The notes: generated from the sequence alone by a model not told the origin. Shown: positions 22,086-59,889, counted from the first letter of the stretch. The stretch: DNA of 64,000 nt from Clostridia bacterium (GCA_017510825.1 JAFWMA010000010.1:21647-85646); one strand, 5' to 3'. Numbers and translations are program-made.

Positions 22086-22631
22086 TTATATTTCTAACTG
22101 ACATCCTAAAAAATTACTAGCAACTTTTGCTATTTCAATTTCTGCATTGCTTATTTTTCGATTTTGTTCTTTTGAAATTAAAATAACACTTCCAATAACT
22201 TCGCTATCTGATATTATAGGTGTTATTATTTTATGTTTTTCATTAATTGGTCCGTCTTTAATAATTGAAATTTTTTTAGTTCCTTCATCGATTGCCGTTT
22301 TTCTACTATCAATTATTTTTTCAAGTTCTTCACTTATTGGAACTTCAAGTAAGTCTTTTTTTGATGTTCCGGATACTGCAACAACGGAATCTTTGTCAGT
22401 AACTATTGAAATTAAGTTTGTTGTATTATATAGACTGTTAACGTATTGTTCAGAAAAATTTGTTAATTCACCTATTGGTGAATATTTTTTTAAAATAATG
22501 TTTCCTTCCTTTTCTGTAAAGATTTCTAAAGGAGTTCCTTCTTTTATCCTTAAAGTTTTTCGTATTTCTTTTGGTATAACTATTCTACCTAAATCATCTA
22601 TTCTTCTAACTACTCCAGTTGCTTTCATCAT
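22086..22631 (-). CDS. spoVT: Stage V sporulation protein T (AbrB-type N-domain + GAF-like C-domain)
   Basis: MKATGVVRRIDDLGRIVIPKEIRKTLRIKEGTPLEIF, ~180 aa as in SpoVT. Confidence 0.88.
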   Translation of the reverse strand: MMKATGVVRRIDDLGRIVIPKEIRKTLRIKEGTPLEIFTEKEGNIILKKYSPIGELTNFSEQYVNSLYNTTNLISIVTDKDSVVAVSGTSKKDLLEVPISEELEKIIDSRKTAIDEGTKKISIIKDGPINEKHKIITPIISDSEVIGSVILISKEQNRKISNAEIEIAKVASNFLGCQLEI

Positions 22632-26342: not shown

Positions 26343-26389
26343 GTGAAAACCTCCTTTATATAGGTTCACAGCTAGGTGATGTTGAATTT

Positions 26390-29121: not shown

Positions 29122-29856
29122 ATGACATTAGCTTTTGCGACCTCAGATGTGGGAAAAGCCCGAGAAATAAATGAAGATTACTTTTTTATTAGCTTTCCAG
29201 ATGATCCAGTTCAAATATATATAGTAGCAGATGGAATGGGTGGATATAATGGTGGAGAAGTTGCTAGCAGACTAGCTGTTGATACTGCCAAAAAATATAT
29301 TTTAAGTAATTATGAAAAGGTTAATAAAAATAGAGAATCTTTAATTGAATTAGTTAAGAATAGTACTCAATATGCTAATATGGTTGTGTATGAAAAGGCT
29401 CAATCTAGAAAAGAGCTAAATAAAATGGGAACAACTTTGGATGTTTGCTTGATTCATCAAAATAGAGCTTTTATTTCACATATTGGGGATAGTAGAATTT
29501 ATAGATTAAGAAAAGAGTTTTTTAGAAGATTAACTAAAGATCATTCTTATGTACAACAGTTAGTTGATGAAGGAAAAATTTCTAAACAAGAAAGCTTAAA
29601 TCATCCAGATAAAAATATGTTGATGAAAGCATTAGGGGTATCATCTTTTATTGAACCAGATGCAATGGTAAAAGGATTTCTAAAAGGTGATGTAATATTA
29701 ATGTGTTCAGATGGATTATCAAATATGGTATCTGAAAAAGATATTGTGAGAATTATTAAAGAAAATCCAACAGATGCTACAAAAATGCTTGTTCAAACAG
29801 CAAATGATAATGGAGGAAGAGACAATATAACTGCAGTGTTGCTAAGAAGTCAGTAA
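29122..29856 (+). CDS. stp: PP2C-family Ser/Thr phosphatase
   Basis: ADGMGG, DSRIY, SDGL, DNITAV motifs; precedes prkC. Confidence 0.92.
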   Translation: MTLAFATSDVGKAREINEDYFFISFPDDPVQIYIVADGMGGYNGGEVASRLAVDTAKKYILSNYEKVNKNRESLIELVKNSTQYANMVVYEKAQSRKELNKMGTTLDVCLIHQNRAFISHIGDSRIYRLRKEFFRRLTKDHSYVQQLVDEGKISKQESLNHPDKNMLMKALGVSSFIEPDAMVKGFLKGDVILMCSDGLSNMVSEKDIVRIIKENPTDATKMLVQTANDNGGRDNITAVLLRSQ

Positions 29857-30032: not shown

Positions 30033-32015
30033 ATGAATGTGATAGGAAAAATCATAGGAAATAGGTATGAAATTATTAAGGAAGTTGGATCAGGTGGTAT
30101 GGCAACTGTATATAAGGCTAAAGATCATGTGCTGAATAGAAATGTTGCTGTTAAAATATTGAGAGATGAGTATACAACAGATGCTGACTTTATAAAAAGA
30201 TTTAATACAGAAGCTCAGGCTGCTGCTAATATGCAACATCCTAATATTGTTTCAATTTATGATGTTGGTCATGAAGAGGAAAGTAATCTTTATTATATTG
30301 TAATGGAGTTGATTAAAGGGAAAACTTTAAAACAAATAATTAGTAAAGATGGTGTTCTTTCTTGGAAATGGTCAGTTAATATTGCAATTCAAATTGCATC
30401 TGCTTTGGAATTAGCACATAAAAATAGTATAGTACATAGGGATATTAAACCTCATAATATAATTATCACTGAAGATGGAGTTGCTAAGGTAACTGATTTT
30501 GGAATTGCAAAAGCTGTTTCAAATTCAACTATAACTGCATTTGGAAATACTATAGGTTCTGCTCATTATTTCTCACCAGAGCAGGCAAAGGGGAGTGTAA
30601 CAACTGATGAAAGGTCAGACATTTATTCATTAGGTGTTGTTATGTATGAAATGATTACTGGAAAGGTGCCGTTTGATGCGGATACACCTGTTGCAGTTGC
30701 CCTAAAACATATGCAGGAAGACCCAATAGAACCAATTGAAATAAATGATGAAATTCCAACTGCTGTTAATGATATTGTAATGAAGGCAATGCAAAAAGAT
30801 CCTATAAATAGGTATCAATCTGCTACTGAAATGTTAGCTGATTTAAGTGAGGCATTAAAAGATCCAGATGGTGATTTTGTTATTATAGAAAACAAAGATG
30901 GTGGATATACAAGGATAATGCCAGCTGTATCTGATGATGATATTGAAAGGAAAAAAGATAGAACAAGGACTAAAGAAAAAGATGGTTTTTTTAAACAACA
31001 TCCTAAGGCTAAAATAGCGATTATTATTTTAGGATTGATTGCTTTATTTGTTGTAGTATTTTTAATTACAAAATTAGTGCTTGATGGTGGTGGAAAGAAA
31101 AAAGTTGATGTTCCAGATTTGAAAGGAAAGACTCAAGCACAGGCTCAAAAAATAGTGGATGATTTGAAACTATCACTTGAAATAGGAGATCCACAACCAA
31201 GTAGTACTGTTGAGGAAGGAAAAATTATTTCGCAGGATCCAGAGTATAAAATGGGTGCACAAATTGAGGAAGGCTCAAAAATAAAGATTGTATTGAGCAA
31301 AGGACCTGAAACAAGTGAATTGCCGAATTTTGTAGATCAGAATATAGATGATACTAGAAAAAAAGCAAAAGAACTAGGTATTGAATTGGAGGAAACAAAG
31401 GAGAATAGCTCTACAGTTAATGAAGGTTTGATAATTAGTCAGGATCCAAAAGCGGGAACTGAAGTTAAAGCAGGAGATAAAATTAAAGTAGTTGTAAGTG
31501 CTGGAACTAAGAAAACAAAAGTTCCAACAGTTATAGGAATGGATGAAGGAACAGCTACTGCAACATTAAAAAATGCTAATCTGAAAGCTAATGTAAGTTA
31601 TAAGAGTGATGATAGTAAAGAAAATGGAAAAGTAATATCACAAAGTATAGATCAAGGCAAGGAAGTTGTAGAGGGAAGTACTGTTGATATTGTTGTTAAT
31701 AAAATAGAGGAGAAGAAACAAAGAAGCGTTAAAATCGAAGTTGAGGTTCCAAAATCATCTTCATCTGATTCATCTACAACTAATACTTCTGTGGGAGGTG
31801 ATTCTAAGGATGTTAGAGTTTTAGTTTTGGTAAATGGAAACAAATTATTTGATAGACTATCAAAACCTGGAGAAACAATTGATTGTGGTAAAGTATATGG
31901 AACAGCTGATGAAAAGAAAGAGGTAGAAGTCAAAGTTGATGGTAAAACAGAAAAAACTATAAGCTTTACAATGGATGAATATTATGATGGTGGAACAGTT
32001 AATATAAAACTATAG
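30033..32015 (+). CDS. prkC: Ser/Thr protein kinase with PASTA repeats
   Basis: GSGGMATVYKA, HRDIKPHN, DFG, TM segment, three PASTA-like repeats. Confidence 0.94.
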   Translation: MNVIGKIIGNRYEIIKEVGSGGMATVYKAKDHVLNRNVAVKILRDEYTTDADFIKRFNTEAQAAANMQHPNIVSIYDVGHEEESNLYYIVMELIKGKTLKQIISKDGVLSWKWSVNIAIQIASALELAHKNSIVHRDIKPHNIIITEDGVAKVTDFGIAKAVSNSTITAFGNTIGSAHYFSPEQAKGSVTTDERSDIYSLGVVMYEMITGKVPFDADTPVAVALKHMQEDPIEPIEINDEIPTAVNDIVMKAMQKDPINRYQSATEMLADLSEALKDPDGDFVIIENKDGGYTRIMPAVSDDDIERKKDRTRTKEKDGFFKQHPKAKIAIIILGLIALFVVVFLITKLVLDGGGKKKVDVPDLKGKTQAQAQKIVDDLKLSLEIGDPQPSSTVEEGKIISQDPEYKMGAQIEEGSKIKIVLSKGPETSELPNFVDQNIDDTRKKAKELGIELEETKENSSTVNEGLIISQDPKAGTEVKAGDKIKVVVSAGTKKTKVPTVIGMDEGTATATLKNANLKANVSYKSDDSKENGKVISQSIDQGKEVVEGSTVDIVVNKIEEKKQRSVKIEVEVPKSSSSDSSTTNTSVGGDSKDVRVLVLVNGNKLFDRLSKPGETIDCGKVYGTADEKKEVEVKVDGKTEKTISFTMDEYYDGGTVNIKL

Positions 32016-37262: not shown

Positions 37263-38006
37263 ATGCCTAGAATTTCTAGAGAATCATTAATAGGGAAAAA
37301 TGTTTTTCATGTTATGACACAGGGAATAAAAAAAGAGAACATTTTTAAATATGAAAGAAAAAAATATGAATATATTAAACTAATGAAAAAACTAAAAGAT
37401 GATTATAATATAAAATTGATTTCATATTGTATGATGGATAATCATGCGCATATATTAATTAATACAAGTAAAATAAAAAGTATGACTGAGTTTATGCACA
37501 AATTAAATACACTATATGGAATTTATTATAATAAAAGTTTAGATAGAATAGGTTATGTTTTTAGGAATAGATTTGAAACTCAGCCAATCATAAATATTAG
37601 TTATTTGCATAACTGTATACTATATATACACAATAATCCTGTCAAAGCAGGAATTTGTGAAAATGCTAAGCAATATAAGTTTTCTAGCTATTATTATTTC
37701 TATAAAGAAAACAATAATATCTTTAAAAGATTGTTTAAAAATCTTAATGAATATAATATGGCGCATAAGAGGGCTATTAGAAAAGTCTATTTAATAGAAG
37801 ATGAAGACGATGTAAAAAGAGAAATTGTGAGCGAAATTACGGAGTACCTTAGATTAAATAAAAGAAATAAAATAGAGTTAAAAGCGGATAAGGAATTATT
37901 GAAACCAATTGCTAAAAGATTAAAAAATATCTATGGTCTCTCAAATGAAAAAAATGGTAAATATTTAGATGTTAGTAGAGAAAAAATAAGATATATTTTA
38001 AAATAG
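37263..38006 (+). CDS. REP-associated tyrosine transposase (RAYT; HUH/Y1, IS200-like fold) with C-terminal HTH-like tail
   Basis: HUH motif MMDNHAHILI, catalytic-Tyr motif LYIHNNPVKAG, YVFRNRF; flanked by inverted REPs; no tnpB partner. Confidence 0.85.
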   Translation: MPRISRESLIGKNVFHVMTQGIKKENIFKYERKKYEYIKLMKKLKDDYNIKLISYCMMDNHAHILINTSKIKSMTEFMHKLNTLYGIYYNKSLDRIGYVFRNRFETQPIINISYLHNCILYIHNNPVKAGICENAKQYKFSSYYYFYKENNNIFKRLFKNLNEYNMAHKRAIRKVYLIEDEDDVKREIVSEITEYLRLNKRNKIELKADKELLKPIAKRLKNIYGLSNEKNGKYLDVSREKIRYILK

Positions 38007-42955: not shown

Positions 42956-44443
42956 ATGAAAATGCAGAAAAAAGTAAACATAGTTTTAGTTATTTTAGTA
43001 ATTATACTAGTGTCTCTAGTATCATTTGGAGGAATTTATTATAAAAATAAAAATGAGTATACTAATAAATTACCAAGTTATATTTTGGGAACTGAACTAC
43101 AAGGATATAGGCAAGTTACTTTAGCTGTTAAAGAAAAGGATAAAGCAGCTGAGACAGATGATTCTAGTGGTGAAGAAAAAACATCTGAGAATAATGAAGA
43201 AGAAAAAAGTGAAATAGAAAATGAGTCGAATAATTTAGAAGAGAGTAAAGAAGAAAATAAAGACTCAGAAGACCAAGAACCTAACTATTATGCAGATGAT
43301 TTTAAGAAAACAGCTGAAATATATAGAGCTAGATTTAAAAGTTTAAAAGTTGATAATTTTTCTGTAATATGTGATGAGGATACAGGAAATATTGTGATTT
43401 CTTTACCAGAAAATGATCAAACAGATATTATTCTTTCAGATATTACACAAATTGGTGAATTTACTATAAAAGATAGTGATACTCAGGAAGTATTATTAAA
43501 TAATGAAGATGTAAGTAGTGTAAAAATTGGTACTCAAGAATCAATGTCAGGTACAAAAACTTATATGAGCATTTATTTCAATAGTAAAGGAACAAGTAAA
43601 TTTAAGGATGTAACAAAGGAATATCAAAATACAGTATCTGAGAATACTGTACAAAATACAGTTGAAAATAAAACTGAAGAAGAGAGTAATGAAGTAGACA
43701 ATGGGGAAGAAACAAATACTGCAGATGAGAATAGTAATACCGAATCTGCAGAAGATAAAAAATCAAAACAAGTAACCATTAATGTTGATTCTACAACTAT
43801 GTTAACGACAGATTTTTCTGAAGTAATAGATAGTGGAGTTTTATCTTTAACTTTAGGAAATGCAACTTCTACAGATGAAGTTTCAAAGGACGAGCTATAT
43901 AGTGCGTATAATTTGGGAGCGATAATAGAAAATAGTCCCCTTCCAGTAGAATATCAAGTTGAAGGAAATTCTTATATTTCTGCGTTACTTGAAACTAATA
44001 AATTAAACTTTATAATTTATATTGAAATTGGAATAGCTCTTCTTATTTCATTAGTTTTGATAATAAAATATAGAATTCAAGGATTATTAACAAGTATTTT
44101 ATCAGTAGGTTTTATTGCAATATTATTAATAGTGATTAGATATACAAATGTAGTTTTATCTTTAGAAGGGTTATTTGCAATTGAGATTTGCTATTTATTA
44201 AGTTGTATTTTCGGAGTGCTAAAATCTGAAAATAACGTTAAAGATGCAACAGATAAAGAAAAGACTAAAGCATTTAAAACTATTATGAAAAAATATACAA
44301 TTATATTAATGCCTGTTTTAATTATAGGTATTGTATGTTCATTCACACAATGGTCACAACTTACAAGTTTGGGAATGATATTATTCTGGGGTGTTTTAAT
44401 TAGTTGGATTTATAATATTACTATAAGTAAACTAATAGATTAA
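42956..44443 (+). CDS. secD: Divergent SecD-like protein
   Basis: TM1, LGTELQGY (cf. LGLDLQGG), KYRIQGLLT (cf. YYRxPGL), six TMs, position after yajC; the MAVDANI-type TM4 motif is absent. Confidence 0.6.
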   Translation: MKMQKKVNIVLVILVIILVSLVSFGGIYYKNKNEYTNKLPSYILGTELQGYRQVTLAVKEKDKAAETDDSSGEEKTSENNEEEKSEIENESNNLEESKEENKDSEDQEPNYYADDFKKTAEIYRARFKSLKVDNFSVICDEDTGNIVISLPENDQTDIILSDITQIGEFTIKDSDTQEVLLNNEDVSSVKIGTQESMSGTKTYMSIYFNSKGTSKFKDVTKEYQNTVSENTVQNTVENKTEEESNEVDNGEETNTADENSNTESAEDKKSKQVTINVDSTTMLTTDFSEVIDSGVLSLTLGNATSTDEVSKDELYSAYNLGAIIENSPLPVEYQVEGNSYISALLETNKLNFIIYIEIGIALLISLVLIIKYRIQGLLTSILSVGFIAILLIVIRYTNVVLSLEGLFAIEICYLLSCIFGVLKSENNVKDATDKEKTKAFKTIMKKYTIILMPVLIIGIVCSFTQWSQLTSLGMILFWGVLISWIYNITISKLID

Positions 44444-44480: not shown

Positions 44481-45101
44481 ATGACAATGAAAAATAAAGT
44501 ATTATTTGTAATAATTGGAATAATATTTATAATTGCAATTATAATGACTTTGGTAAAGGGAATAAGTGTTGATACATTTTATGGTGAAGGATACACTATA
44601 AGTTTTACAGAAAAAAATACTATAGATTTAAATGAAATTGAAAAAATAGTGAAAGAAATATGGGGAAATAGTTTTAGCGTACAAAGGTTAGAATTTTTTA
44701 ATGATAGTGCAAAAATAAAAGTTAAAGATTATACAGATGAGCAAATTACTAAATTAAAAGATAAACTAAATGAACAATATAATTCTGAGCTTGAAGAAAC
44801 TAGTTTCAAAATTGAACATGTTTCAAATGTTAAGATAAGAAATGTAATAACACCATATGTAATACCTGTAATTTTATCACTTGTTATTGTTATGCTTTTC
44901 TATGCAATTCGTTTCAGAGGTGCTAAAAAAATGATTGAATTGTTATTTTGCTTGTTGGTGATTGGTGGATTATTTTATAGCATTATAGTAATAGCAAGGA
45001 TTCCATTTAGTGCTGTAACAATGCCTTTAGCAATGTGCGTATATATTTTAACTGTTTTAGGTCATACGTCTATAAGTGAAATAAGACAAAGTAATGAATA
45101 A
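44481..45101 (+). CDS. secF: Truncated SecF-like protein
   Basis: TM1, GISVDTFYGEG (cf. GIDFxGG), AIRF; only 206 aa and 4 TMs. Confidence 0.5.
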   Translation: MTMKNKVLFVIIGIIFIIAIIMTLVKGISVDTFYGEGYTISFTEKNTIDLNEIEKIVKEIWGNSFSVQRLEFFNDSAKIKVKDYTDEQITKLKDKLNEQYNSELEETSFKIEHVSNVKIRNVITPYVIPVILSLVIVMLFYAIRFRGAKKMIELLFCLLVIGGLFYSIIVIARIPFSAVTMPLAMCVYILTVLGHTSISEIRQSNE

Positions 45102-45703: not shown

Positions 45704-47323
45704 ATGATTACTACATTACATATTAAAAATATTGGTATTATTGAGGATTTGAATGTTGAGTTAAGTGAAGGATTAAATGTTTTTACTGGTGAAACAGGCG
45801 CTGGAAAGACTTTAATTATAGATGCAATTAATATTATATCTGGTGGAAGGTTTTCCAAAGAAATGATAAGAAGAGGGGAAAAATATTCTTTTGTGGAAAT
45901 GAATTTATTTCTTCCTGAATATGACAATTCTATTGAAGGAAATATTATTGTTAGTAGAGAGATACATACTAATGGAAGAAATTCTTGTAAAATAAATGGA
46001 AGGCTTGTTACTGTTACAGAATTGAAAAGTTTTATGAATGGTGTAATTGATATTCATGGACAGAATGATAATCAAAAGATTTTGAATCCGATTTATCATA
46101 TAAATTATTTAGATAATTTTGCTGGAAAAGAATTAAAAATTTTAAATAAACAGTATAATGAACTTTATTGTGAATATTGTAGTCTTAGGAAAAAGCTAAA
46201 AGAAAACTTAGGTGATGAAAAAGAAAAGCAAAGGAAGCTTGATCTGCTTCAATACGAATTTGATGAAATAGATAGTGCAAACTTAAAAGTTGGAGAAGAT
46301 GAAGAGCTAAAAGAAAAAAGTAAAATATTTGAAAATGCTGAAAAAATCACATTAAGTATAAGTGAGTCTAGTTTGTGTAGCCAAAATGCTATTGATGAAA
46401 TTAATAGTGCAATAAAGGCAGTAGAAAAAATTAGCCATTTGGACAGTAAGTATGATGATAAGCTTTCTGAGTTGAAAAATATATATTATGAAATAGAGGA
46501 ATTTAGTAGAGATTTATCTTATATGACGGATGATGTTGATTTCAGTGAAGATGAAAGAGATGAAATAGAACAAAGGTTAGATTTAATTGCTTCACTTAAA
46601 AGAAAATATGGAAGTAGTATTGAGGAAATATTGGAATATAAAAATAAAACCGAAGCTGAAATAGATTATATAAATAATTTAGATGAAGAAAATAGTAAAT
46701 TAAAGAAACAATTAGAAATACTTGAATTAAAAATGGGTAATTTATCAGGAGAGATTCATAAAAAAAGGATAGATGTTTCTACAATTTTAAATAAAAAAGT
46801 TAATAAGGAATTAAGTGATTTGGAAATGTCTAGTGCAAAATTTACTGTTAATGTTGAAAAAACTGAAGAATTTAATGAATATGGCAAAGATAAAGTACAG
46901 TTTTATATATCAACTAATGTTGGTGAAGATAATAAAGAATTAAATAAGGTTGTATCTGGTGGAGAGATGTCAAGAATTATGTTAGCTATAAAAACAGTGT
47001 TAGCTAACACTGATAGTACGCCTGTAATGGTGTTTGATGAAATTGATACTGGAATAAGTGGAAAAGCGGCTAAGTCTGTTAGCCAAAAGTTAAAACTAAT
47101 TGGAGAAAATCATCAGGTGATATGCATAACTCATCAACCTAGTATTGCGGCTAAAGGTGATAATAATTATTTTATTAGCAAAGAAACGATTAATGATAGA
47201 ACGCATACTCAGATAAAGAAATTAAATGAGAATGAAATAATAAATGAAATTGCTAGAATTGCAAATGGTGATATAACTGAAATTGCATTAAAGCATGCAT
47301 TAGAGCTTAGAAAGTTAGCATAA
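45704..47323 (+). CDS. recN: DNA repair protein RecN
   Basis: LHIKNIGIIEDL...FTGETGAGKT, coiled-coil middle, SGGEMSR, VFDEIDTG. Confidence 0.93.
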   Translation: MITTLHIKNIGIIEDLNVELSEGLNVFTGETGAGKTLIIDAINIISGGRFSKEMIRRGEKYSFVEMNLFLPEYDNSIEGNIIVSREIHTNGRNSCKINGRLVTVTELKSFMNGVIDIHGQNDNQKILNPIYHINYLDNFAGKELKILNKQYNELYCEYCSLRKKLKENLGDEKEKQRKLDLLQYEFDEIDSANLKVGEDEELKEKSKIFENAEKITLSISESSLCSQNAIDEINSAIKAVEKISHLDSKYDDKLSELKNIYYEIEEFSRDLSYMTDDVDFSEDERDEIEQRLDLIASLKRKYGSSIEEILEYKNKTEAEIDYINNLDEENSKLKKQLEILELKMGNLSGEIHKKRIDVSTILNKKVNKELSDLEMSSAKFTVNVEKTEEFNEYGKDKVQFYISTNVGEDNKELNKVVSGGEMSRIMLAIKTVLANTDSTPVMVFDEIDTGISGKAAKSVSQKLKLIGENHQVICITHQPSIAAKGDNNYFISKETINDRTHTQIKKLNENEIINEIARIANGDITEIALKHALELRKLA

Positions 47324-50819: not shown

Positions 50820-51527
50820 ATGTCAGTTTATGCAATAGGAGATTTACATTTATCATTTAATGAAGAAAAACCAATGGATATCTTTGGTCAGAAGTGGAAA
50901 AAACATGAAATACAAATTGAATATAATTGGCTTAGAACAATAAAAAATGATGATTTAGTAATTTTACCAGGAGATTTTTCTTGGGCAATTAATATACAAG
51001 ATGCATTAAAAGATTTTCAGTTTTTAAATAGATTACCTGGAAAAAAAGTTTTTATTAAAGGAAATCATGATTACTGGTGGACAACTTTAAAATCGATGTA
51101 TGAGTTTTTGGATGAAAATGAAATAGATAGTGTTGATTTTATAATGAATAATGCTATAGAGTACGAAAATGTTATTGTTGTTGGAACTAGGGGATGGTCA
51201 TTTAATGATACTGAAAATAGTGAAAAAATGCTTAATAGAGAAGTAATTAGATTAAAAAATTCAATAAATTATGCAAAAGAAAACTTTGATTTAAATAAGA
51301 AGATAATATGTGCAATGCATTATCCACCAATTACTAAAACCATGGTTGAAGAAAATATACAAAGTGATTATTTAGAATTATTAAAAAAATATGATATTAA
51401 AAATTGTTTGTATGGCCATTTGCATGGAATGTCGCATTCTGAAGCGGTTGAAGGGGCTATAGATGGAGTAAATCTTAAACTTGTTAGTAGTGATTATTTA
51501 AATTTTATTCCTTATAAAATTGCTTAA
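50820..51527 (+). CDS. Metallophosphoesterase
   Basis: GDLHLS, GDFSW, GNHDYWW, GHLH. Confidence 0.8.
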   Translation: MSVYAIGDLHLSFNEEKPMDIFGQKWKKHEIQIEYNWLRTIKNDDLVILPGDFSWAINIQDALKDFQFLNRLPGKKVFIKGNHDYWWTTLKSMYEFLDENEIDSVDFIMNNAIEYENVIVVGTRGWSFNDTENSEKMLNREVIRLKNSINYAKENFDLNKKIICAMHYPPITKTMVEENIQSDYLELLKKYDIKNCLYGHLHGMSHSEAVEGAIDGVNLKLVSSDYLNFIPYKIA

Positions 51528-51614
51528 ATATTTATTAAAAATTTGTTAGATAATGTTAATATATTATTTTAGTAATAAGTAATAAAAAATGAAACAAAGG
51601 AAGGGAATTGTTTG

Positions 51615-52892
51615 ATGAAAAAAAGAACTATTAAAATTAATTTTGGTGTAGCTATTGTATCAGTATTAATAATTATTTTAATAACAATATGTTTGATAAT
51701 TTTTTTAGGAAAAAACAATAATGATAATAAACAAGCTAGTGCTAGTAATAGTATTGAGGAAGAAACTAAAACTTCTCCAGCGAAAAAACAAAATGCAATG
51801 GATATTGAAGTGCCAATAACAAAGCAAAATCCTTTAAAAGCTGTTAATATAGAAAAAGTTATAGAGGAAAATGAAAAAAATATTCAAAGGGAAACTATAG
51901 AAAGACAAGAGGCTGATGTTGAGTTTAATACGCAATATAGAGAGAATAATTCATTAGCAAAAGGAAAGATTCAAACTATACAAGAAGGTCAAGATGGAAA
52001 ACAAAATGCAATAATTAAAAATATATATAGAAATGGAGAACTTGTAACATCTAATCAAATTTCTTCTGAAATCACGAAAGCTTCAATTGATAAAATTGTT
52101 GAAATTGGAACTGCTGCATATTCAAGCAATTATGTGCCAATAGTAGGTGATGAATTAGAAGTAACATCACTAACTTTAGCTGTAAGGATTTCAGCAAGCA
52201 ATGACGCTGATAAACTAATTACTCTAAACAAAGGCGATAAGGTAAAGGTTAAAGAAGAAAAGGATGATTGGTATAATATAAGTTATTCTTCATATTCAGG
52301 ATGGGTACCGAAAGATTGTCTTAAATTTGTACCACCTAATGCAGAAAGTGATGGAGATGAGAATAATCCACAATTTACGAAAGAGCAATTAACTCAAGAT
52401 ATTGGATTTAGTATGTTATTGAATAGAAAGAGTGGGCTATCAATTGATCAATACAAAAAAATATTTGAGGATGAGTCAAATGATAAAAATAATGTTTTTA
52501 AAGAAAATGCCGAATATTTTTACTATGCAGAGCAACAATATAATATTAATGGACTATTTGTTGCTGCAATAGGAATACATGAAAGTGGATGGGCAACGTC
52601 AACAATTTCACTTTCAAAGAAAAATTTATTTGGATATAGGGCTTATGATAGAGATCCGTACGGAAGTGCATCTGCTTTTGAAAACTATTCAGAAGGAATA
52701 GACTTAGTTGCTCGTGTTTTAGTTAAGTATTATTTAAATCCACCTGGAACACCTATTTATGGGGGAGAAACAGCATCAGGAGCATATTATAAAGGCTCAA
52801 CTGTTACAGCTGTAAATAAATCATATGCTACAGATAAAAATTGGGCGAATGCAGTATATAAGTGGATGTTATATTTATATAATAAATTGTAA
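51615..52892 (+). CDS. Cell-wall hydrolase: TM anchor + G5-like + SH3b-like + N-acetylglucosaminidase domain
   Basis: VAAIGIHESGWATS...NLFGYRAYD glucosaminidase motif; DDWYNISYSSYSGWVPK SH3b-like. Confidence 0.82.
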   Translation: MKKRTIKINFGVAIVSVLIIILITICLIIFLGKNNNDNKQASASNSIEEETKTSPAKKQNAMDIEVPITKQNPLKAVNIEKVIEENEKNIQRETIERQEADVEFNTQYRENNSLAKGKIQTIQEGQDGKQNAIIKNIYRNGELVTSNQISSEITKASIDKIVEIGTAAYSSNYVPIVGDELEVTSLTLAVRISASNDADKLITLNKGDKVKVKEEKDDWYNISYSSYSGWVPKDCLKFVPPNAESDGDENNPQFTKEQLTQDIGFSMLLNRKSGLSIDQYKKIFEDESNDKNNVFKENAEYFYYAEQQYNINGLFVAAIGIHESGWATSTISLSKKNLFGYRAYDRDPYGSASAFENYSEGIDLVARVLVKYYLNPPGTPIYGGETASGAYYKGSTVTAVNKSYATDKNWANAVYKWMLYLYNKL

Positions 52893-52993
52893 AATTATAC
52901 TTGATATTTTTTTGAAGTTAGTGTATTATTATAAGGAATGAAAAATAACTAAGACTTATTGAGATAACAAATTATAGAAAGGAAATCTTAATA

Positions 52994-53398
52994 ATGAAGA
53001 AGGTAGCAAGGGTTTTAGTTGTGCTAATGCTATTATTAGGTACTATATCTTTAACTCCAGTTTATGCTAGTAATCAAATTATTTCAAATGAAACCAAGAG
53101 TAAGTTAGTTGAAATAAAAGATAAAGAGCTGAAATCAATAGAAGATTACAAAGCTACATATGGAGATGGGGTGTATGGAACCGTTGGATATATATTAAAT
53201 AAGATAAGAATTTATAGTATTCCCTTAACTTTTTTAGGAATAGCTATTAGTGTTATATATCAGTTTGTTTTGGGAGCTAGACATGCAGAAAATTTGTACA
53301 AAGGATTTAATTCAATGATAGTAATTGTATCATTGTTTGTAATTTGTCAGGTTTTACCACTAGTTTTTGCGATTGTAATAAAAGGTTGGAGGGGATAA
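52994..53398 (+). CDS. Small secreted/membrane protein (signal peptide + two TM helices)
   Basis: MKKVARVLVVLMLLLGTISLTPVYA signal; two C-terminal hydrophobic helices; stop 4 nt before the next start. Confidence 0.65.
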   Translation: MKKVARVLVVLMLLLGTISLTPVYASNQIISNETKSKLVEIKDKELKSIEDYKATYGDGVYGTVGYILNKIRIYSIPLTFLGIAISVIYQFVLGARHAENLYKGFNSMIVIVSLFVICQVLPLVFAIVIKGWRG

Positions 53399-53401
53399 CT
53401 A

Positions 53402-56400
53402 ATGAAAGTTTTATTTGCTGTTAGTAATGATACTGTAACTACATCTATTGTAAATAAGTATCAACAAACATACAAAGAAATTGTAACAAGTAAAAATGTT
53501 TACTATTTTAATGCAATTGTTAAAGAATTACAAAGAGATAAAAACTATGATTGTATTATCATAGAAGAAGATTTGGAACCAATATCTAATAATAATTATG
53601 AAGCAATTGATAATTTTTTATTTGAAAAATTAGATAGTATAAGTGATGAGGCATCAAAACCAACAGGTGAAGATATTCCTATTGTTTTTGTATGTTCAGA
53701 TAGAAGAACAAAATCTGATGACTTATTAAGAAAGCTATTTAGCATGAGTATATACAATGCTTTAGTAGGAGATGATAGAAGTCTAGATAAAGTTTGTGAA
53801 TTAATGAGCAAACCACGTAATAAAAAGGAAGCCAAAAAGTATTATCAAATTGAAGGTAATCAAGTTGACTATGAGGCACATAAAGATGAAATTGTTAGTG
53901 AGGAACAAATTCAAAATATATTAAACTATTACAAAAAGATTGGTAGTAATGAGAGAAAGTGTGTACAGGCTTTTGACAGTATATCAAAGCAATATGATAA
54001 CACACAACTTAGGATTATTGTTAAATTTTTACCAATGAATGTTAAAGCTATATTGGAATCAAATTCTGCAACATATCAAAGGCTTATGTCAAATGGAACT
54101 GTTTTGTCTAATGGCCAATATAGTCCATATACTCCAAGTAATCCAAAAAAACCTGAGAAACTTGATTTTATTGCAAAAAATGTTGAAGATAATAAAAAAT
54201 TAGATAAACCAGTTGTCATTCCGTCAAATATGAATTATCAACAAATAGGTGGAAATGACAATGGAAATAGTGCTTCTGGATATGGTCAATCAAATGACCA
54301 ACAGCAAGCAAACAATATGAGAAATCAACAGTATATGAGGAATGCCAGTCAAGCACAATATAATAATTATAATAATCCATATGGTACAATGAGAAATCAA
54401 TATGGAAATAATTATAGACCTCAAAATAATAGTCCATATAGTATGGGGCAACAAATGTATAATAGTAGGCAACCAACCAATCCTTATTATAATAATATGA
54501 ATGTTAATCCTTATCATCAAAATATGAATTATAATAATTCTCAAAATAATACGCAACAAAACTTTAATAATATGGGACAACCATATGTTAATAATAATCA
54601 ACTAAATGTAAATAACTCTAATAATGCTACTGCTGATAAAACTACTAATAGTTTAATAAGTCAAGAAAAAAATGGTAGTTTACTCGATGTTAAGCCAATT
54701 GAACCAATGAAACCATTAGGAGAAGATAGTAGTTTAGCAAATAATATAAACAATGAAAATAAAGTAAGTGAGAATAAAGAAGTAAGCCAAGAACAACCTG
54801 AGTCAACTAAGAAAAGAAGAGGTAGACCTAGAAAAATAAAAGCAAGTAAAGGAGACGAAAATGTTGAAACAGCAGTTGTAGAACCTATTAAAAAAAGAAG
54901 AGGTAGACCTAGAAAAATAAAAAATTTTGAAGAACATACAGAGGGAATTCAAAACAACTTATTTGATGAAAATAATAATAAAGAGATTGGAGAAGAGAAT
55001 CCAGCTGTTTTAGAAGAAATTAATAGTAATGATAACATGATTGTTAGTGAATCAAATAAGGGAGCTGATGTTTTAAATAGTAGAAATAATACTGATAACC
55101 TAATTAATAATTCATCAAATATGAATAATAAACAAATTACTCAAAATAGTAATTATGAGATACAACCAAATAAGAAAATTCATCAAACAAATGCAAATGA
55201 AAATAAAACTGTTAATTTATATGATCTAGATATTAATGGCACTGATCCTTTTGATAATATTTATAATAACGAAGCAAGTAATGTATTTGGTAGTAATGCA
55301 CCTGTAATGGGCAATACGCCAGTAATTGGTAATTCGACGATTAATAATCAACCTATTAATAATATACCAACTAATAATGAACCGATTGATAATACATCAA
55401 TAAATAATGAAACAATTGGTACTACACTAATTGATAATGCTACAATACAGCAACCTTCTTTGCTTGAAAATAATGACAATAGTTTAAAAGATTCTACTAT
55501 GTTAATTGAAAAAGATAAAACAAGTGAAGATATTGAAGCTTTAAAGAATACTACAATTGCTGGAAATGGAAAGATAGTTGCTTTTGTTGGAACAAGTAAA
55601 AATGGAACATCATTTATTATTAATAATTTAGCTCAAATGTTATCACAAGATGGCATTAATGTTGCAATATTGGATGTAACTAAAAATAAAAACTCATATT
55701 ATATGTATACAGATAATGATGCTAATAAAGTAAAAGTTGCTACGGATAGCTTGAAAAATTTATCAAATGGGATTGTTAAAGGATTGAGTGTTAAAAATAA
55801 TTTAACAGTTTTCACATCTTTACCAGACCAAATAGACAATGATAATTTGGATAATAAAACTATAATTGAAAAGTTAGCTCAACAATTTGATGTGATATTA
55901 GTAGATTGTGATTTTAAAACAGATTTAACATATTTTATTTTAGCTAATGAAATATATTTAGTTCAATCTATGGATGCTTTGACAATACAACCACTTACTA
56001 AATTTTTAAGTGATTTAAAATTGAAAAATATATTAGATGAATCTAAATTAAAAGTAATTATAAATAAATATATTAAATTAAAAAGATTAGATGATAGAAT
56101 GATTGTTGGTGGTATGTCTAAATATAACGAACCATCAATGACATTGCAAAGGGATTTATTTAATCCTAAAAAGATAACAACTGCGATTATACCTTTTGAT
56201 GATCAAACTTATTTTAAGTACTTAGAGTCTATTGCATTGTGTCAATTTTCTTTAAATGGTTTTTCAAGAGAGGTAATTGACAGTTTAGAAAAACTAAAAA
56301 GTATGGTGTATCCTTTAATTGCTGGTAATAGTGTTAATGGAAGTGGACCATCAAACTATGTCGATTATAATGTAAATGGATATAGTAATCAGACAAATTC

Positions 56401-56461
56401 TCAACATTTTTCAAGTAACGTTAACGATACATTGAATAAGATGAGAACAAATAACTTTTAG
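53402..56461 (+). CDS. 1019-aa multidomain protein: receiver-like N-domain, Q/N/Y-rich low-complexity region, two AT-hooks, C-terminal MinD/ParA-like domain with atypical Walker A
   Basis: KKRRGRPRKIK at 54809-54841 and 54890-54919; KIVAFVGTSKNGTS (55589-55612) ... VILVDCD. Confidence 0.85.
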   Translation: MKVLFAVSNDTVTTSIVNKYQQTYKEIVTSKNVYYFNAIVKELQRDKNYDCIIIEEDLEPISNNNYEAIDNFLFEKLDSISDEASKPTGEDIPIVFVCSDRRTKSDDLLRKLFSMSIYNALVGDDRSLDKVCELMSKPRNKKEAKKYYQIEGNQVDYEAHKDEIVSEEQIQNILNYYKKIGSNERKCVQAFDSISKQYDNTQLRIIVKFLPMNVKAILESNSATYQRLMSNGTVLSNGQYSPYTPSNPKKPEKLDFIAKNVEDNKKLDKPVVIPSNMNYQQIGGNDNGNSASGYGQSNDQQQANNMRNQQYMRNASQAQYNNYNNPYGTMRNQYGNNYRPQNNSPYSMGQQMYNSRQPTNPYYNNMNVNPYHQNMNYNNSQNNTQQNFNNMGQPYVNNNQLNVNNSNNATADKTTNSLISQEKNGSLLDVKPIEPMKPLGEDSSLANNINNENKVSENKEVSQEQPESTKKRRGRPRKIKASKGDENVETAVVEPIKKRRGRPRKIKNFEEHTEGIQNNLFDENNNKEIGEENPAVLEEINSNDNMIVSESNKGADVLNSRNNTDNLINNSSNMNNKQITQNSNYEIQPNKKIHQTNANENKTVNLYDLDINGTDPFDNIYNNEASNVFGSNAPVMGNTPVIGNSTINNQPINNIPTNNEPIDNTSINNETIGTTLIDNATIQQPSLLENNDNSLKDSTMLIEKDKTSEDIEALKNTTIAGNGKIVAFVGTSKNGTSFIINNLAQMLSQDGINVAILDVTKNKNSYYMYTDNDANKVKVATDSLKNLSNGIVKGLSVKNNLTVFTSLPDQIDNDNLDNKTIIEKLAQQFDVILVDCDFKTDLTYFILANEIYLVQSMDALTIQPLTKFLSDLKLKNILDESKLKVIINKYIKLKRLDDRMIVGGMSKYNEPSMTLQRDLFNPKKITTAIIPFDDQTYFKYLESIALCQFSLNGFSREVIDSLEKLKSMVYPLIAGNSVNGSGPSNYVDYNVNGYSNQTNSQHFSSNVNDTLNKMRTNNF

Positions 56462-56469
56462 AAAAGGAG

Positions 56470-57663
56470 GTGTTCTTTTTGGAGATTGCAGCATTATGTT
56501 TTATCATATTGTTAGTAGTAATTGTAATAGTATTGGTAATATATAATTATTTTGTGCATAAAAAAATAGAAACATTTTCAACTTTAAATCAGAGAGTAAA
56601 AAATCTAAATGTATTACAAGAGTTTATGAACACTTTAGGAGAAAATGCAACAATTACTGAAAAATTAGAAAATATTAATGATATAATGATAAATAAATAC
56701 TCTATAAAGTATTCAACTATAGTAGTATTTAATGGTGCAGAATATGAAATTAAAGCTTCAAATGTGGATTCTAAACATTGGAGTAGTTTAAAGAATTTAC
56801 AAAATGATCCTGTTTTTTCAGAAAGTATTCAAACTGCAACACCTAAATATGTAACAGTTGATAATGATAATGAGAAACTACCATATCAAAAAATGGAATT
56901 TGGTAGAGCAAAATGTGCAATGTTTTTTCCTTTATATATAGATAATGTTTACATTGGGTATTGGATTATTGAGGGAAGTATAGCACATGAATTTGATAAA
57001 TTAGATACAACAATATTAGGTGTTGTAAGGGATAACATTGTTACAATTCTTAAAGCTGTTTCAACTCAGTCAACCCTTGAAAATTTGGTTAGAGATGATC
57101 AATATTCAGGGCTTAAGTCTGAAGAATACTTATATGGAGAAGGAAAAAAAGTAATTGAACAGTATACAACATCTGCGATTTGTATCTTTAAGATAACTAA
57201 TTTACCTATGGTTAATACTGAAATTAGTAGGAAAACTGGTGACAATATGGTAACTTATGTTTCAAATTTTGTAAAACAAAATTTGTCTCAAAATTATATT
57301 TTTGTAAGATATATGGGACCTAAATTTGCTATTGTATTTTCGGGTGCAGACATTAAAGGTGTATCAAATTTTATGAGAGATATGAAACAGAAGATTGAGA
57401 TGATTAATGTACAATATGCAAGTGATTATAAAGGTAATGACAATCCTGATAATAATGGAAATAATACTAGTGGTGAACAAGTAAATTCAAATCAGGGATT
57501 TCAACCACAACAGCAAAACAAAATACCATCTCCTAAGGTTGTAAGACCTCAAATTAGGGCAGTAATTTCTACATATTATAAAGGTACATCTTTGGATGGA
57601 GCATTAAAAAAGATTGAAGATTTTGTAGATAAATCTAATGAAAATTCTGTTAGTGTAGTATAA
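56470..57663 (+). CDS. Membrane protein with sensor-like domain and degenerate GGDEF domain
   Basis: DQYSGLKS...FKITNL...RYMGPKFAIVF (GGDEF replaced by MGPKF, 57313-57327); the real start may be TTG 56479 given the RBS position. Confidence 0.75.
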   Translation: MFFLEIAALCFIILLVVIVIVLVIYNYFVHKKIETFSTLNQRVKNLNVLQEFMNTLGENATITEKLENINDIMINKYSIKYSTIVVFNGAEYEIKASNVDSKHWSSLKNLQNDPVFSESIQTATPKYVTVDNDNEKLPYQKMEFGRAKCAMFFPLYIDNVYIGYWIIEGSIAHEFDKLDTTILGVVRDNIVTILKAVSTQSTLENLVRDDQYSGLKSEEYLYGEGKKVIEQYTTSAICIFKITNLPMVNTEISRKTGDNMVTYVSNFVKQNLSQNYIFVRYMGPKFAIVFSGADIKGVSNFMRDMKQKIEMINVQYASDYKGNDNPDNNGNNTSGEQVNSNQGFQPQQQNKIPSPKVVRPQIRAVISTYYKGTSLDGALKKIEDFVDKSNENSVSVV

Positions 57664-57690
57664 GAGGGGATAAGAAAGGAATTAATAATT

Positions 57691-57945
57691 ATGTCTTTAG
57701 ATGAAACACGTAGTTTCAAGGTTGAAAAAATTGAAAATGAAAAAACTAAAGAAATTCTTAAAGAAGTATATGATTCACTTAAAGAAAAGGGATATAATCC
57801 TATAAACCAAATTGTAGGATATATTTTATCTGGAGATCCAACATATATTACAAGTCATAATGGAGCTCGTAGTTTAATTAGAAGAGTTGAAAGAGACAAA
57901 TTACTTGAAAAAATGGTTAAGGAATATATTGAAGTTGATGAGTAG
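57691..57945 (+). CDS. ireB: IreB-family regulatory phosphoprotein (UPF0297/DUF965)
   Basis: 84 aa, [33 protein letters not shown]; precedes ruvX as usual. Confidence 0.82.
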
Positions 57946-58366
57946 AATAATAGGAATTGATTATGGAAAAGTGAGAACTGGATTAGCAATAACGGATGCC
58001 CTTGGGATAACTGCCCAAGGGCTTGAAACAATTATTTCAAATGGTAATGATAAGATTATTTTAAAAAGATTGGCTGAGTTAGTAGAGGAATATGAAATTG
58101 ATAAGTTTGTTATTGGTAATCCTATTAATATGGATGGAACTGAAAGTGATAGATCGAGAGAAACTAGAGATTTCATACATAAGCTTAAATCTAGATTTAA
58201 TGCAATTGAAGTTATAAGTGTTGATGAGAGATTAACTACAGTTGAAGCTCATAAAACAATGAATATTTTAAATATTAATAAACATAAAAAAAAGCAATTG
58301 GTTGATACAATTTCTGCTGTTTATATATTAGAAAATTATATTAATAAAGCTAAAAGTGAGAAGTAG
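57938..58366 (+). CDS. ruvX: Holliday-junction resolvase-like nuclease YqgF/RuvX
   Basis: [20 protein letters not shown]; 8-nt overlap with ireB. Confidence 0.9.
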
Positions 58367-58409
58367 AATGTAAAAATGTTTATTTTTCTTACTTTTTTAG
58401 ATGTTTACC

Positions 58410-58438
58410 TTGACTTTAGGGGAAAAAGGTTGTATAAT
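58410..58438 (+). promoter_or_regulatory. S10-operon promoter
   Basis: TTGACT-17 bp-TATAAT. Confidence 0.65.
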
Positions 58439-58444
58439 AAATAA

Positions 58445-58715
58445 GCATGTTAATGATAGCGGTGAAGTAGGATGTGGCTACATACCTATTAAATAGGTAA
58501 TGGAGGGAACTCCTATGGAGTATGTCATGGCAAAGACCAGGCGGCAAGTTTTATAAATATAAAGCACTTTAGCCCAAGGATTCATGCAAAACTTGGGATT
58601 TTATATTGGTAATAAAAAGAAACACCAGGGTGCGTTTATAACTTCCGACCAAAAATAAAAAAATACATAGTGTGAATGCTATTAAACACAATGTATTATG
58701 AAAAGGAGGTATATA
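58445..58715 (+). promoter_or_regulatory. Long structured 5' leader of the S10 operon (unclassified)
   Basis: Hairpins ACCTAT-TAA-ATAGGT, GGAG-GGAA-CTCC, CCCAAG...CTTGGG, AATACATAGTGTG...ACACAATGTATT abutting the RBS. Confidence 0.45.
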
Positions 58716-59075
58716 ATGGCAACAACTAAGAAAACGGAGAAAAAAGAAACTAAGGTTGCAACAACAGCAAAGAGTGACAAGATTAGGATTAGACTTAAAG
58801 CTTATGACCATGTTGTTTTAGAACAGTCTGCTGAGAAGATAGTAGATACTGCTAAAAGAACAGGTGCTAAAGTTTCTGGACCTATTCCTCTTCCAACTGA
58901 AAAAGAAATTGTAACAATTTTACGTTCTCCACACAAACACAAAGATTCAAGAGAACAATTTGAGTTAAGAACTCATAAAAGAGTTATTGATATTTTATAT
59001 CCTACTCAAAAAACTGTTGATAGCTTAATGAAAATTGAATTACCAGCAGGTGTTGATATAGAAATCAAATTATAA
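58716..59075 (+). CDS. rpsJ: 30S ribosomal protein S10 (with ~15-aa Lys/Thr-rich N-terminal extension)
   Basis: AGGAGG RBS; ...[30 protein letters not shown]. Confidence 0.96.
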
Positions 59076-59245
59076 TCTTAGAGATTAAAAATTAGAGGTT
59101 AAATGTTAGAGCCTCTGTAAATATATCTAGCAAAACTAAGCTGAGTTAGAGATTTAGAAGTTAGAGGTTAGAATTGAAAATCTAATATCTAACCACAAGT
59201 GTGAAGTACATGTGGCTAAAATCTAATAATCTAGATCAGCCAATA
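59076..59245. repeat. Structured rpsJ-rplC spacer rich in TTAGAG / TCTAA motifs
   Basis: TTAGAG at 59078, 59092, 59106, 59146, 59161; TTAGAA twice; complementary TCTAA motifs downstream; hairpin GGTTAGA...TCTAACC. Confidence 0.55.
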
Positions 59246-59259
59246 GTTAGGAGGTTAAA

Positions 59260-59889
59260 ATGAAGAAAGCATTAATAGGAAGAAAAGTTGGAATGACACA
59301 AATATTCGATGAAAAAGGACAAATCATTCCTGTAACAGCAATAGAGGTTGGACCATGTACTGTTGTTCAAATTAAAACAGTAGATCAAGATGGTTATGAT
59401 GCTGTTAAATTAGGTTTTGGAGAAGTAAAAGAAAAGAAACTTAATAAACCTCAATTAGGTCAATTTAGAAAAAGTAAGTTAACACCTAAAAAGTATTTAA
59501 GAGAATTTAGGTTAGATTCTATTGAAGGATTAAAAGTTGGTGATGAACTTAAGGCAGATGTATTTGAAGTAGGAGATAAAGTTGATATTCAAGGTACTTC
59601 AAAAGGTAAAGGATTTCAAGGTGTAATTAAACGTCATGGACAACATAGAGGTCCAATGGGACATGGTTCAATGTATCACAGAAGACCTGGTTCAATGGGG
59701 TCTACATCAACTCCAGGTAGAGTTTACCCAGGTAAAAAACTACCAGGACATATGGGTGTTGAAACTGTAACAATTCAAAATCTTGAGGTTGTTAAAGTTG
59801 ATTTAGATAAAAATGTTATTTTAGTTAAAGGAAGTGTTCCTGGAGCTAAAAAATCTATATTAAAAATAAAATCAAGTGTAAAAGCGTAG
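59260..59889 (+). CDS. rplC: 50S ribosomal protein L3
   Basis: [16 protein letters not shown]..., 209 aa. Confidence 0.97.

Follow-up and report, generated by a model that had tools for sequence, protein, structure and literature searches.

An undescribed family of ParA/MinD-fold proteins with a pseudo-receiver and, in one clade, paired AT-hooks, encoded ahead of ireB in uncultured gut Clostridia

The stretch of DNA analysed in this study, referred to as the window, comprises 64,000 nucleotides (nt) from the metagenome-assembled genome (MAG) of an uncultured Clostridia bacterium (GCA_017510825.1 JAFWMA010000010.1:21647-85646) and carries on its plus strand an open reading frame (ORF) for a protein of 1019 amino acids (aa). 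The window is ordinary chromosome, containing tRNA synthetases, TsaD, Tgt/QueA, a PASTA kinase with a PP2C phosphatase and the S10 ribosomal operon, and the chromosome has a GC content of about 29%. A preliminary description of the ORF had proposed a receiver-like N-terminal domain, a prion-like Q/N/Y-rich region, two AT-hooks and a C-terminal ParA/MinD-like domain. Our analysis, in which domain models were obtained by structure prediction (AlphaFold/AF2) with family alignments, divides the ORF as follows.

53402..56461, plus strand: 1019-aa ORF, consisting of pseudo-receiver, helical bundle, disordered linker with two AT-hooks, ParA/MinD-fold domain and C-terminal helix
53402..53821, plus strand: pseudo-receiver, residues 1-140, predicted (beta-alpha)5 fold (AF2 and Foldseek)
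53822..54241, plus strand: helical bundle, residues 141-280, with five predicted helices (about 167-229) and a conserved KPVVIPS end motif
54254..54631, plus strand: Q/N/Y-rich low-complexity stretch, residues 285-410, prion-like in composition and lineage-specific
54809..54841, plus strand: AT-hook 1, KKRRGRPRKIK, residues 470-480 (sequence motif, conservation, Pfam)
54890..54922, plus strand: AT-hook 2, KKRRGRPRKIK, residues 497-507 (sequence motif, conservation, Pfam)
55562..56326, plus strand: ParA/MinD (SIMIBI) fold domain, residues 721-975 (AF2 and Foldseek)
55589..55612, plus strand: variant P-loop G730-T-S-K733-N-G735-T736-S737, between beta1 and alpha1 of the model
56408..56458, plus strand: extreme C-terminal helix, residues 1003-1019, F[SN]xx[MV]NxTLNKM[KR]xN[YF], a candidate membrane-targeting or partner-docking peptide

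A conserved protein of uncultured gut Clostridia

The 1019-aa protein is a real and conserved protein of uncultured gut Clostridia. Its reading frame contains no internal stop, and gene calls on 15 independent metagenome contigs of the European Nucleotide Archive give a protein that does not differ in a single residue, so that the ORF is not a one-off product of assembly; all peptides quoted in the preliminary description were found in the translation. Protein-level searches returned hundreds of unnamed homologues, each of 200-490 aa and each matching one end only, a pattern in favour of the view that an assembly or annotation artefact has fused separate genes into one long ORF, a possibility that the preliminary description had itself raised. 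Inspection of the relatives' loci revealed that these short entries start or stop at runs of N within the linker, because scaffold gaps fall into this repetitive region and gene callers restart past the gap. Hence, assemblies break inside the linker and the full architecture is hidden from protein-level searches. At least 68 full-length orthologues of 720-1400 aa carry both domains on uninterrupted sequence (85 loci), and the library of representatives at 50% identity contains many family members of 700-1400 aa. Together with the identical product on 15 contigs from independent assemblies, the uninterrupted orthologues rule out a fusion of separate genes, which we consider next to impossible.

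Breaks of this kind were recorded in the linkers of relatives at locus L002 (6600-7700), at locus L004 (about 7860-7960) and at loci L133 and L137.

Relatives of the protein occur in at least 590 species-level genomes. All carriers are MAGs named 'Clostridia bacterium' or 'Clostridium sp. CAG', recovered from animal and human guts, and one of them, Clostridium sp. CAG:273, is placed by GTDB in Clostridia; TANB77; CAG-508 (PMC13508870). A scan of IMG/VR found no viral relative of the family. Besides the TANB77-type clade there is a second, deeper clade (30-45% identity), and the two-domain architecture is kept across both. Judged by the sequences, the two domains and the hook pair are not products of chance, as dozens of orthologues keep them. 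When 1.84 billion representatives were searched with the family profile, no more than 429 proteins were retrieved at E ≤ 1e-3; at the level of profiles, the family is small and isolated and stays separate from the large families of ParA, MinD and TadZ.

The preliminary description knew of no described family with this combination of parts, and none was found by us in curated models or in the literature searched. Scanned with Pfam, NCBIfam and PADLOC as a whole and domain by domain, the protein showed only sub-threshold similarity to CbiA and MipZ and no defence family, the matches in NCBIfam and PADLOC being zero. Searches against PDB sequences with phmmer and with three profile hidden Markov models (HMMs) gave nothing usable for either domain, and our literature search found neither a paper pairing AT-hooks with a ParA/MinD protein nor one on a ParA-like gene beside ireB. 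The family is undescribed, being without a curated Pfam or NCBIfam model, a PDB sequence match or a describing paper.

Folded domains, nucleotide loop and linker

The AF2 model of residues 700-1019 has a mean pLDDT of 82, rising above 85 over the core, and Foldseek matched it to ParA, MinD, BcsQ, FlhG, Soj and NifH structures at probability 1.0 (E 3e-9 to 1e-6, TM-score 0.6-0.75 on target), with the orphan ParA-family structure 3ea0 as the top match. The ParA/MinD-like C-terminal domain was thus recovered with a P-loop NTPase fold by structural comparison, and Pfam reported it only below threshold (CbiA 18.8-22.1 bits against 25.4; MipZ 16.6-20.1 against 20.7), the weak CbiA match recurring in 44 of 58 family members. 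The C-terminal motifs KIVAFVGTSKNGTS, AILD and VILVDCD are all present as originally quoted.

The nucleotide loop of this domain reads GTSKNGTS. Set against G-K-G-G-x-G-K-[ST] of ParA/MinD, it has threonine in place of both lysines and a lysine at loop position 4 (K733); the deviant Walker A pattern xKGGxxGK[ST] is absent from it, with neither the canonical nor the 'signature' lysine in place. The loop motif is [FLI][VI]G-x-x-K-x-G-[TS]-[TS]-F in both clades, and G730, K733, G735, T736 and F738 are invariant or nearly invariant in all members, as are D758 after strand 2, D835 after the hydrophobic Walker B strand and N888-K889 after model strand 184-188. The switch-I segment AILD758 and the Walker B segment VILVD835 both follow predicted strands and are invariant in the two clades. 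These positions coincide with the SIMIBI nucleotide site (P-loop, switch I, Walker B and the N-K motif), the residue mapping onto MinD being based on secondary-structure position and motif logic. Conservation of the nucleotide-site residues implies that the site is probably still used, and it probably serves binding and dimerisation rather than fast hydrolysis.

The absence of the Walker A lysine, correctly noted in the preliminary description, is not unusual for this architecture, since TadZ likewise does without it. The Walker-A-like consensus of TadZ is K/RGGXGXS/T, without the canonical lysine (bioRxiv 10.64898/2026.07.08.737194), and the TadZ of Eubacterium rectale is reported to have lost both lysines and yet to retain its intrinsic ATPase activity, for which it employs a lysine of a neighbouring helix (PMC10482377, citing Xu et al. 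2012). The loop GxxKxGT[ST] is an unreported solution for a nucleotide loop. The preliminary description had overlooked the invariant K733, and likewise the conserved C-terminal helix, the conserved neighbours and the clade-specific origin of the AT-hooks.

At the other end of the protein, the AF2 model of residues 1-290 contains a receiver-like (beta-alpha)5 core, after which comes a bundle of five helices, and the Foldseek matches of the N-domain comprise the REC domain of ComE, the N-terminal receiver of Caulobacter CpaE (4n0p, TM-score 0.71 on target) and the pilus-related BPSS2195 (4dad). Structure prediction, proposed beforehand as a check, bore out both a receiver or TadZ-type atypical receiver at the N-terminus and the ParA/MinD-type domain at the C-terminus. 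Pfam Response_reg gave no match to the N-domain. In our motif reading, beta1 ends in S-N-[DE] and an invariant E56-[DE]-L-E-P follows beta3; beta1 is not followed by an acidic pair, nor beta5 (YNALxG) by a lysine, for which reason the domain is named a pseudo-receiver. As modelled, it has the fold of a receiver and not the residue set of a phosphorylatable one. The helical bundle showed a weak similarity of the HTH_40/RecQ-C type and nothing stronger.

The linker between the folded parts is of a different nature in each lineage. Residues 285-410 are composed of N 32%, Q 15%, Y 11%, S 7%, M 6%, G 6% and P 6%, and the window's other long ORFs contain on average N 6.7%, Q 3.5% and Y 4.2%. The densest stretch of 80 residues (329-408) holds 39 Q+N, where a criterion reportedly set by Michelitsch and Weissman in 2000 for prion-like regions is at least 30 Q+N per 80 residues. 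The composition is as the preliminary description had it, but it is not conserved, as only 26 of the 68 orthologues reach this threshold. Linkers in the TANB77-type clade measure 160-630 aa, are net acidic and vary strongly in composition, being N/Q-rich in the nearest relatives of the window protein and E/P/K-rich in others; when the 16 closest orthologues were aligned, the two hooks alone could be matched. In-frame tandem repeats are found in the linker at 54479-54535 (27 nt x 2, encoding NPYxxNMNx) and at 55343-55446 (30 nt x 3.5, encoding INNxPIxNTx), and such short DNA repeats are consistent with slippage-driven expansion and drift in an AT-rich genome. We infer that the Q/N-rich segment is a drifting spacer and not an active part of the protein.

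These observations bear on the idea, put forward in the preliminary description, of a nucleoid-tethered and possibly condensate-forming positioning scaffold. In its strong form, the prion-like Q/N/Y region would drive phase separation and the protein would primarily be a condensate-forming scaffold on the nucleoid, for which the 39 Q+N per 80 residues, where 30 is the classical threshold, and a long disordered linker flanked by multivalent binding modules can be adduced. The threshold is missed by the majority of orthologues, whose linkers may be E/P-rich, K/E coiled-coil or built of PKVE repeats and in one clade are nearly absent; the linkers of the 16 nearest orthologues cannot be aligned outside the hooks, and the tandem repeats point to slippage drift. 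A role resting on Q/N/Y composition is therefore weak, and we hold a primarily condensate-forming protein to be improbable. The AT-hooks named in the same description are real and conserved.

The motif KKRRGRPRKIK occurs twice, at residues 470-480 and 497-507, so that the R-G-R-P core with basic flanks, the mark of an AT-hook, is present two times. The DNA copies (54808-54841 and 54889-54922) match at 33 of 34 nt, and their last 30 nt (54812-54841 and 54893-54922) are identical, in agreement with the two identical 30-nt repeats reported beforehand. Pfam AT_hook (PF02178) gave the two stretches 16.6 bits, slightly below its cut-off of 17.4, and scored in 23 of 61 relatives. Among the 56 orthologues whose linkers were parsed, 52 have exactly two [KR][KR]xRGRP[KR]K motifs, 20-50 residues apart, and the remaining linker cannot be aligned, which argues that the hook pair is under selection and the prion-like composition is not. 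In the TANB77 clade, nothing in the linker but the pair of AT-hooks is conserved at the level of alignment. The hooks of relatives differ from each other (hook 1 K[RK]RGRP, hook 2 RGRGRP), unlike the copies in the window with their 30 of 30 identical nt, and this suggests a recent duplication or gene conversion in the lineage.

AT-hooks are absent from the deeper clade, where linkers can be as short as about 20 residues or extend over long coiled-coil or PKVE repeats. By their distribution, the AT-hooks are a clade-specific acquisition on an older two-domain protein. A nearly linker-free version of the protein, of 570-590 aa, is found in a sub-clade (e.g. loci L105 and L111).

Nearly all proteins of the TANB77 clade end, after a variable tail, in F[SN]xx[MVI]NxTL[ND][KQ]M[KR]xN[YF], a motif modelled as a helix with F1-V5-L9-M12 on one face. 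Proteins of the deeper clade have tails such as KKGLF, GLFRRR, RFGLFR, SFIKSIFRKR and KRRGIFG, and some close relatives carry a KRGFF element just upstream of the terminal motif. In sequence, these basic-hydrophobic tails and the KRGFF element resemble the membrane-targeting sequence of MinD. The terminal helix is a candidate membrane anchor or partner-docking peptide.

The gene cluster ahead of ireB and ruvX

The gene for the 1019-aa protein belongs to a cluster in which it is preceded by a small protein with three transmembrane segments and followed by a transmembrane protein with a degenerate GGDEF domain, ireB and ruvX.

52994..53398, plus strand: small membrane protein of 134 aa, with a signal/transmembrane segment and two further transmembrane segments; first gene of the cluster
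56470..57663, plus strand: membrane-anchored degenerate GGDEF protein, with N-terminal transmembrane segment, conserved middle domain and GGDEF domain
57691..57945, plus strand: IreB/ReoM-family phosphoprotein (Pfam E 1.6e-38)
57887..58366, plus strand: RuvX/YqgF nuclease (Pfam E 2e-41)

This order holds in 80-84 of the 85 loci of the TANB77 clade, genes further upstream being variable, and members of the family keep a fixed place before ireB-ruvX in about 130 loci. The small membrane protein lies upstream in 80 of these 85 loci and is recognisable in 16 distant ones, where the deeper-clade proteins share the same QxLPLV[FY]A ending; a homologue of 107 aa is present at locus L105. The degenerate GGDEF gene is present in 84 of the 85 loci and in 31 of 53 distant loci. 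No match to it was found in the remaining 22 distant loci, in most of which IreB comes directly after the homologue of the 1019-aa gene. IreB follows the module in 81 of the 85 TANB77-clade loci, and IreB-RuvX does so in 48 of the 53 deeper-clade loci. A sub-clade comprising loci L086-L103 and L129 has lost the degenerate GGDEF gene, and ireB directly follows.

The genes are tightly packed, with intergenic gaps of 3 nt and 8-17 nt and in-frame ribosome-binding sites. The stop codon of the small membrane protein lies 3 nt before the ATG of the 1019-aa gene, whose ribosome-binding site GGAGGGG is contained in the 3' end of its neighbour. For the degenerate GGDEF protein, the TTG at 56479, 8 nt past a GGAGG, is a more likely start than the GTG at 56470, and 394 aa are called on other contigs. 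A terminator scan of 51400-59300 found no terminator-like site, and a promoter-like 10/12 site upstream of the cluster (52901-52929) is of a kind not above chance (65 against 54.7 +/- 7.2 in shuffles).

As the preliminary description stated, there are no pilus genes nearby: pilus, Min and Par genes were absent from the window, and no pilus gene was found within 8-10 kb in about 138 loci, a count that concerns the loci only. The flanks and the window are also without partners of the minC and minE (or DivIVA/MinJ) type. This bears on the view that the protein is a true TadZ/CpaE and serves to localise a Tad/Flp pilus as its hub, the remaining pilus genes being located elsewhere in the genome. 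The two-domain plan is the same, the receivers of CpaE and BPSS2195 are among the best N-domain matches, the best C-domain match is the orphan ParA-family structure 3ea0, and TadZ too is missing the Walker A lysine (bioRxiv 10.64898/2026.07.08.737194). Such a role is made very improbable by the lack of pilus genes in loci where the gene always stands before ireB-ruvX, by a loop GTSKNGTS that does not fit K/RGGXGXS/T, by a family profile that retrieves 429 of 1.84 billion proteins and so falls short of the large TadZ/CpaE family, and by the lack of any HMM match to TadZ or CpaE chains in the PDB.

The companion GGDEF protein scores at the Pfam GGDEF threshold (23.8-25.4 bits), has an invariant YMGPKF at the position of the GGDEF active site and lacks an RxxD I-site five residues upstream. 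In the cellulose system, BcsE consists of degenerate REC and GGDEF domains and works with the MinD-like BcsQ and small membrane proteins. By analogy, the 1019-aa protein and the degenerate GGDEF protein may together form a membrane signalling complex in which the former is a scaffold independent of nucleotide; the complex would control an envelope or exopolysaccharide machine, DNA binding being accessory. BcsQ is among the top C-domain matches, one cluster encodes the same set of degenerate modules (REC, SIMIBI NTPase, GGDEF and small transmembrane protein), and a wall hydrolase with G5, SH3 and glucosaminidase domains lies upstream in 40 of the 85 loci. The cluster contains no glycosyltransferase or secretion genes that could serve as an output machine, and the clade without the degenerate GGDEF gene keeps both ireB and the homologue of the 1019-aa protein. 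A link to cyclic di-GMP (c-di-GMP) is unsupported, as the GG[DE]EF site and the I-site are both missing, and in the TANB77 clade the importance of DNA binding is indicated by two strictly conserved AT-hooks. On balance, we regard such a scaffold as unlikely, if less so than a condensate.

IreB is a substrate of the PASTA kinase and, as ReoM, controls the stability of MurA in Listeria (PMC7286690). In the window, a PASTA Ser/Thr kinase (30033-32015) and a PP2C phosphatase (29122-29856) are encoded 25 kb upstream of the IreB/ReoM homologue (57691-57945). The kinase and the IreB homologue are a possible kinase-substrate pair relevant to the regulation of the cluster.

Elsewhere in the window, an ORF with an IS200-like Y1 transposase domain (37263-38006) lies between ileS and queA, and an ATPase of the SMC_N/AAA_15/AAA_21 type (45704-47323) adjoins two ORFs without Pfam match (42956-44443, 495 aa; 44481-45101, 206 aa). 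The segment 20000-27000 is the sole stretch with minus-strand genes (20689-21297, 22086-22631 and 24504-26369) and shows a dip in GC skew and AT skew.

A possible nucleoid-to-membrane tether and its known counterparts

Our analysis establishes the folds, the conserved architecture and the gene cluster, and it shows that hooks, nucleotide-site residues and C-terminal peptide are selectively conserved. As a tentative reading, to which we give somewhat less than an even chance, in the TANB77 clade the 1019-aa protein is a non-pilus, TadZ/CpaE-like, membrane-associated hub through which AT-rich DNA of the nucleoid is tethered to a site at the membrane. The C-domain would still bind nucleotide, with S737 (a position that is [TS] family-wide), D758 and D835 as ligands of Mg and phosphate along with the loop lysine K733, and would use it mainly for dimerisation with little turnover, as reported for TadZ. 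The dimer would be held at the membrane by the C-terminal helix, by the two neighbouring membrane proteins or by both. The pseudo-receiver may recruit or sense partner proteins, as proposed for the atypical receiver domain (ARD) of TadZ. The TadZ ARD is used for localisation in a protein whose Walker A motif is lysine-less (bioRxiv 10.64898/2026.07.08.737194; PMC10482377). The AT-hooks of the TANB77 clade would grip the minor groove of its AT-rich chromosome, and the outcome would be a nucleoid-to-membrane tether functionally reminiscent of Noc and assembled from unrelated parts. The fixed association with ireB suggests a link to cell-envelope growth or division.

Several observations weigh against such a hub, the weakest links of which are membrane binding and the biological process served. 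Every carrier is an uncultured MAG. The family profile HMM reaches no PDB chain at E ≤ 10, so the similarity to ParA/MinD exists at the level of fold only, and an hhalign comparison of the family profile with E. coli MinD aligned 20 columns at a probability of 0.6%, which is not significant and gives no more than a hint of the register. The N-domain model is only moderately confident (pLDDT 74, pTM 0.50, Foldseek E about 1e-3). The hydrophobic moment of the terminal helix is not above that of shuffles (p = 0.23) in a crude test that also failed to flag the MinD positive control. Distant members without AT-hooks imply that DNA tethering is not the ancestral function of the family, and the ireB-ruvX synteny could reflect inherited gene order rather than functional coupling.

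A bolder version, which we deem somewhat unlikely, would make the family a new kind of tether between chromosome and membrane, or a device akin to nucleoid occlusion, on a MinD/TadZ chassis. This would combine a relocated loop lysine in place of the two Walker lysines, AT-hooks on a long acidic tether, an anchor made of the C-terminal helix and two membrane proteins, and co-expression with IreB coupling nucleoid position to wall synthesis or division in the genome-reduced TANB77.

The ParA/MinD ATPases are the main positioning machines of bacteria, and 'orphan' members are being matched to their cargos. The ParA/MinD chassis with a TadZ-like plan and the AT-hook are each known already; new are the family, the GxxKxGT[ST] loop, the presence of AT-hooks within a ParA/MinD-type protein and a non-pilus cluster in which the gene has a fixed place, shared by hundreds of uncultured Clostridia of the gut. 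Annotation pipelines are blind to a gene carried by at least 590 species-level genomes of these abundant bacteria, as it has no model and assemblies break in it. If the tether exists, it would represent a new coupling of nucleoid and envelope in Firmicutes in which the classical systems may be missing; should there be no such tether, the family still offers a clean test case for the extent to which a P-loop can be rewired under conservation. The sub-clades without the degenerate GGDEF gene or nearly without a linker are natural variants useful for dissecting the module.

Among known systems, TadZ/CpaE is the closest in layout, and the resemblance noted in the preliminary description was borne out at fold level: an N-terminal atypical receiver is joined to a C-terminal atypical ParA/MinD domain, and the Walker A motif is without its canonical lysine in TadZ (bioRxiv 10.64898/2026.07.08.737194), both lysines being lost in the E. 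rectale protein (PMC10482377). The family differs from TadZ/CpaE in lying outside any tad locus at the loci examined, in a P-loop GxxKxGT[ST] that has only the G-x-S end and the missing canonical lysine in common with K/RGGXGXS/T, in its additional helical bundle, linker of 160-630 aa with AT-hooks and conserved C-terminal helix, and in having no sequence-profile link to it. With MinD it shares the fold (MinD of Aquifex, Pyrococcus and Archaeoglobus being among the C-domain matches) and a short C-terminal helix after a flexible tail, and the tails of distant members resemble the MinD targeting sequence. Unlike MinD, the 1019-aa protein has neither KGGxGK[ST] nor adjacent minC/minE, it possesses an N-terminal pseudo-receiver and AT-hooks, and its membrane binding is putative.

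The BcsQ-BcsE-BcsR/F system is alike in bringing together a MinD-like NTPase, of which BcsQ is a top structural match, degenerate REC/GGDEF modules and small membrane proteins. The modules are divided differently among the polypeptides, the cluster described here contains no cellulose synthase, and BcsE has an I-site that binds c-di-GMP, unlike the degenerate GGDEF protein, which lacks this site.

Noc of Bacillus subtilis and RicO, the origin anchor of S. aureus, bring the chromosome to the membrane by means of a DNA-binding element and a membrane amphipathic helix (PMC4331003; PMC8429893; bioRxiv 10.64898/2026.03.06.710092). Their likeness to the 1019-aa protein is a functional analogy without homology. 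Noc is a ParB-family CTPase with sequence-specific binding, whereas a ParA/MinD-like chassis with putative DNA contact through AT-hooks is found here. [quoted passage not shown]

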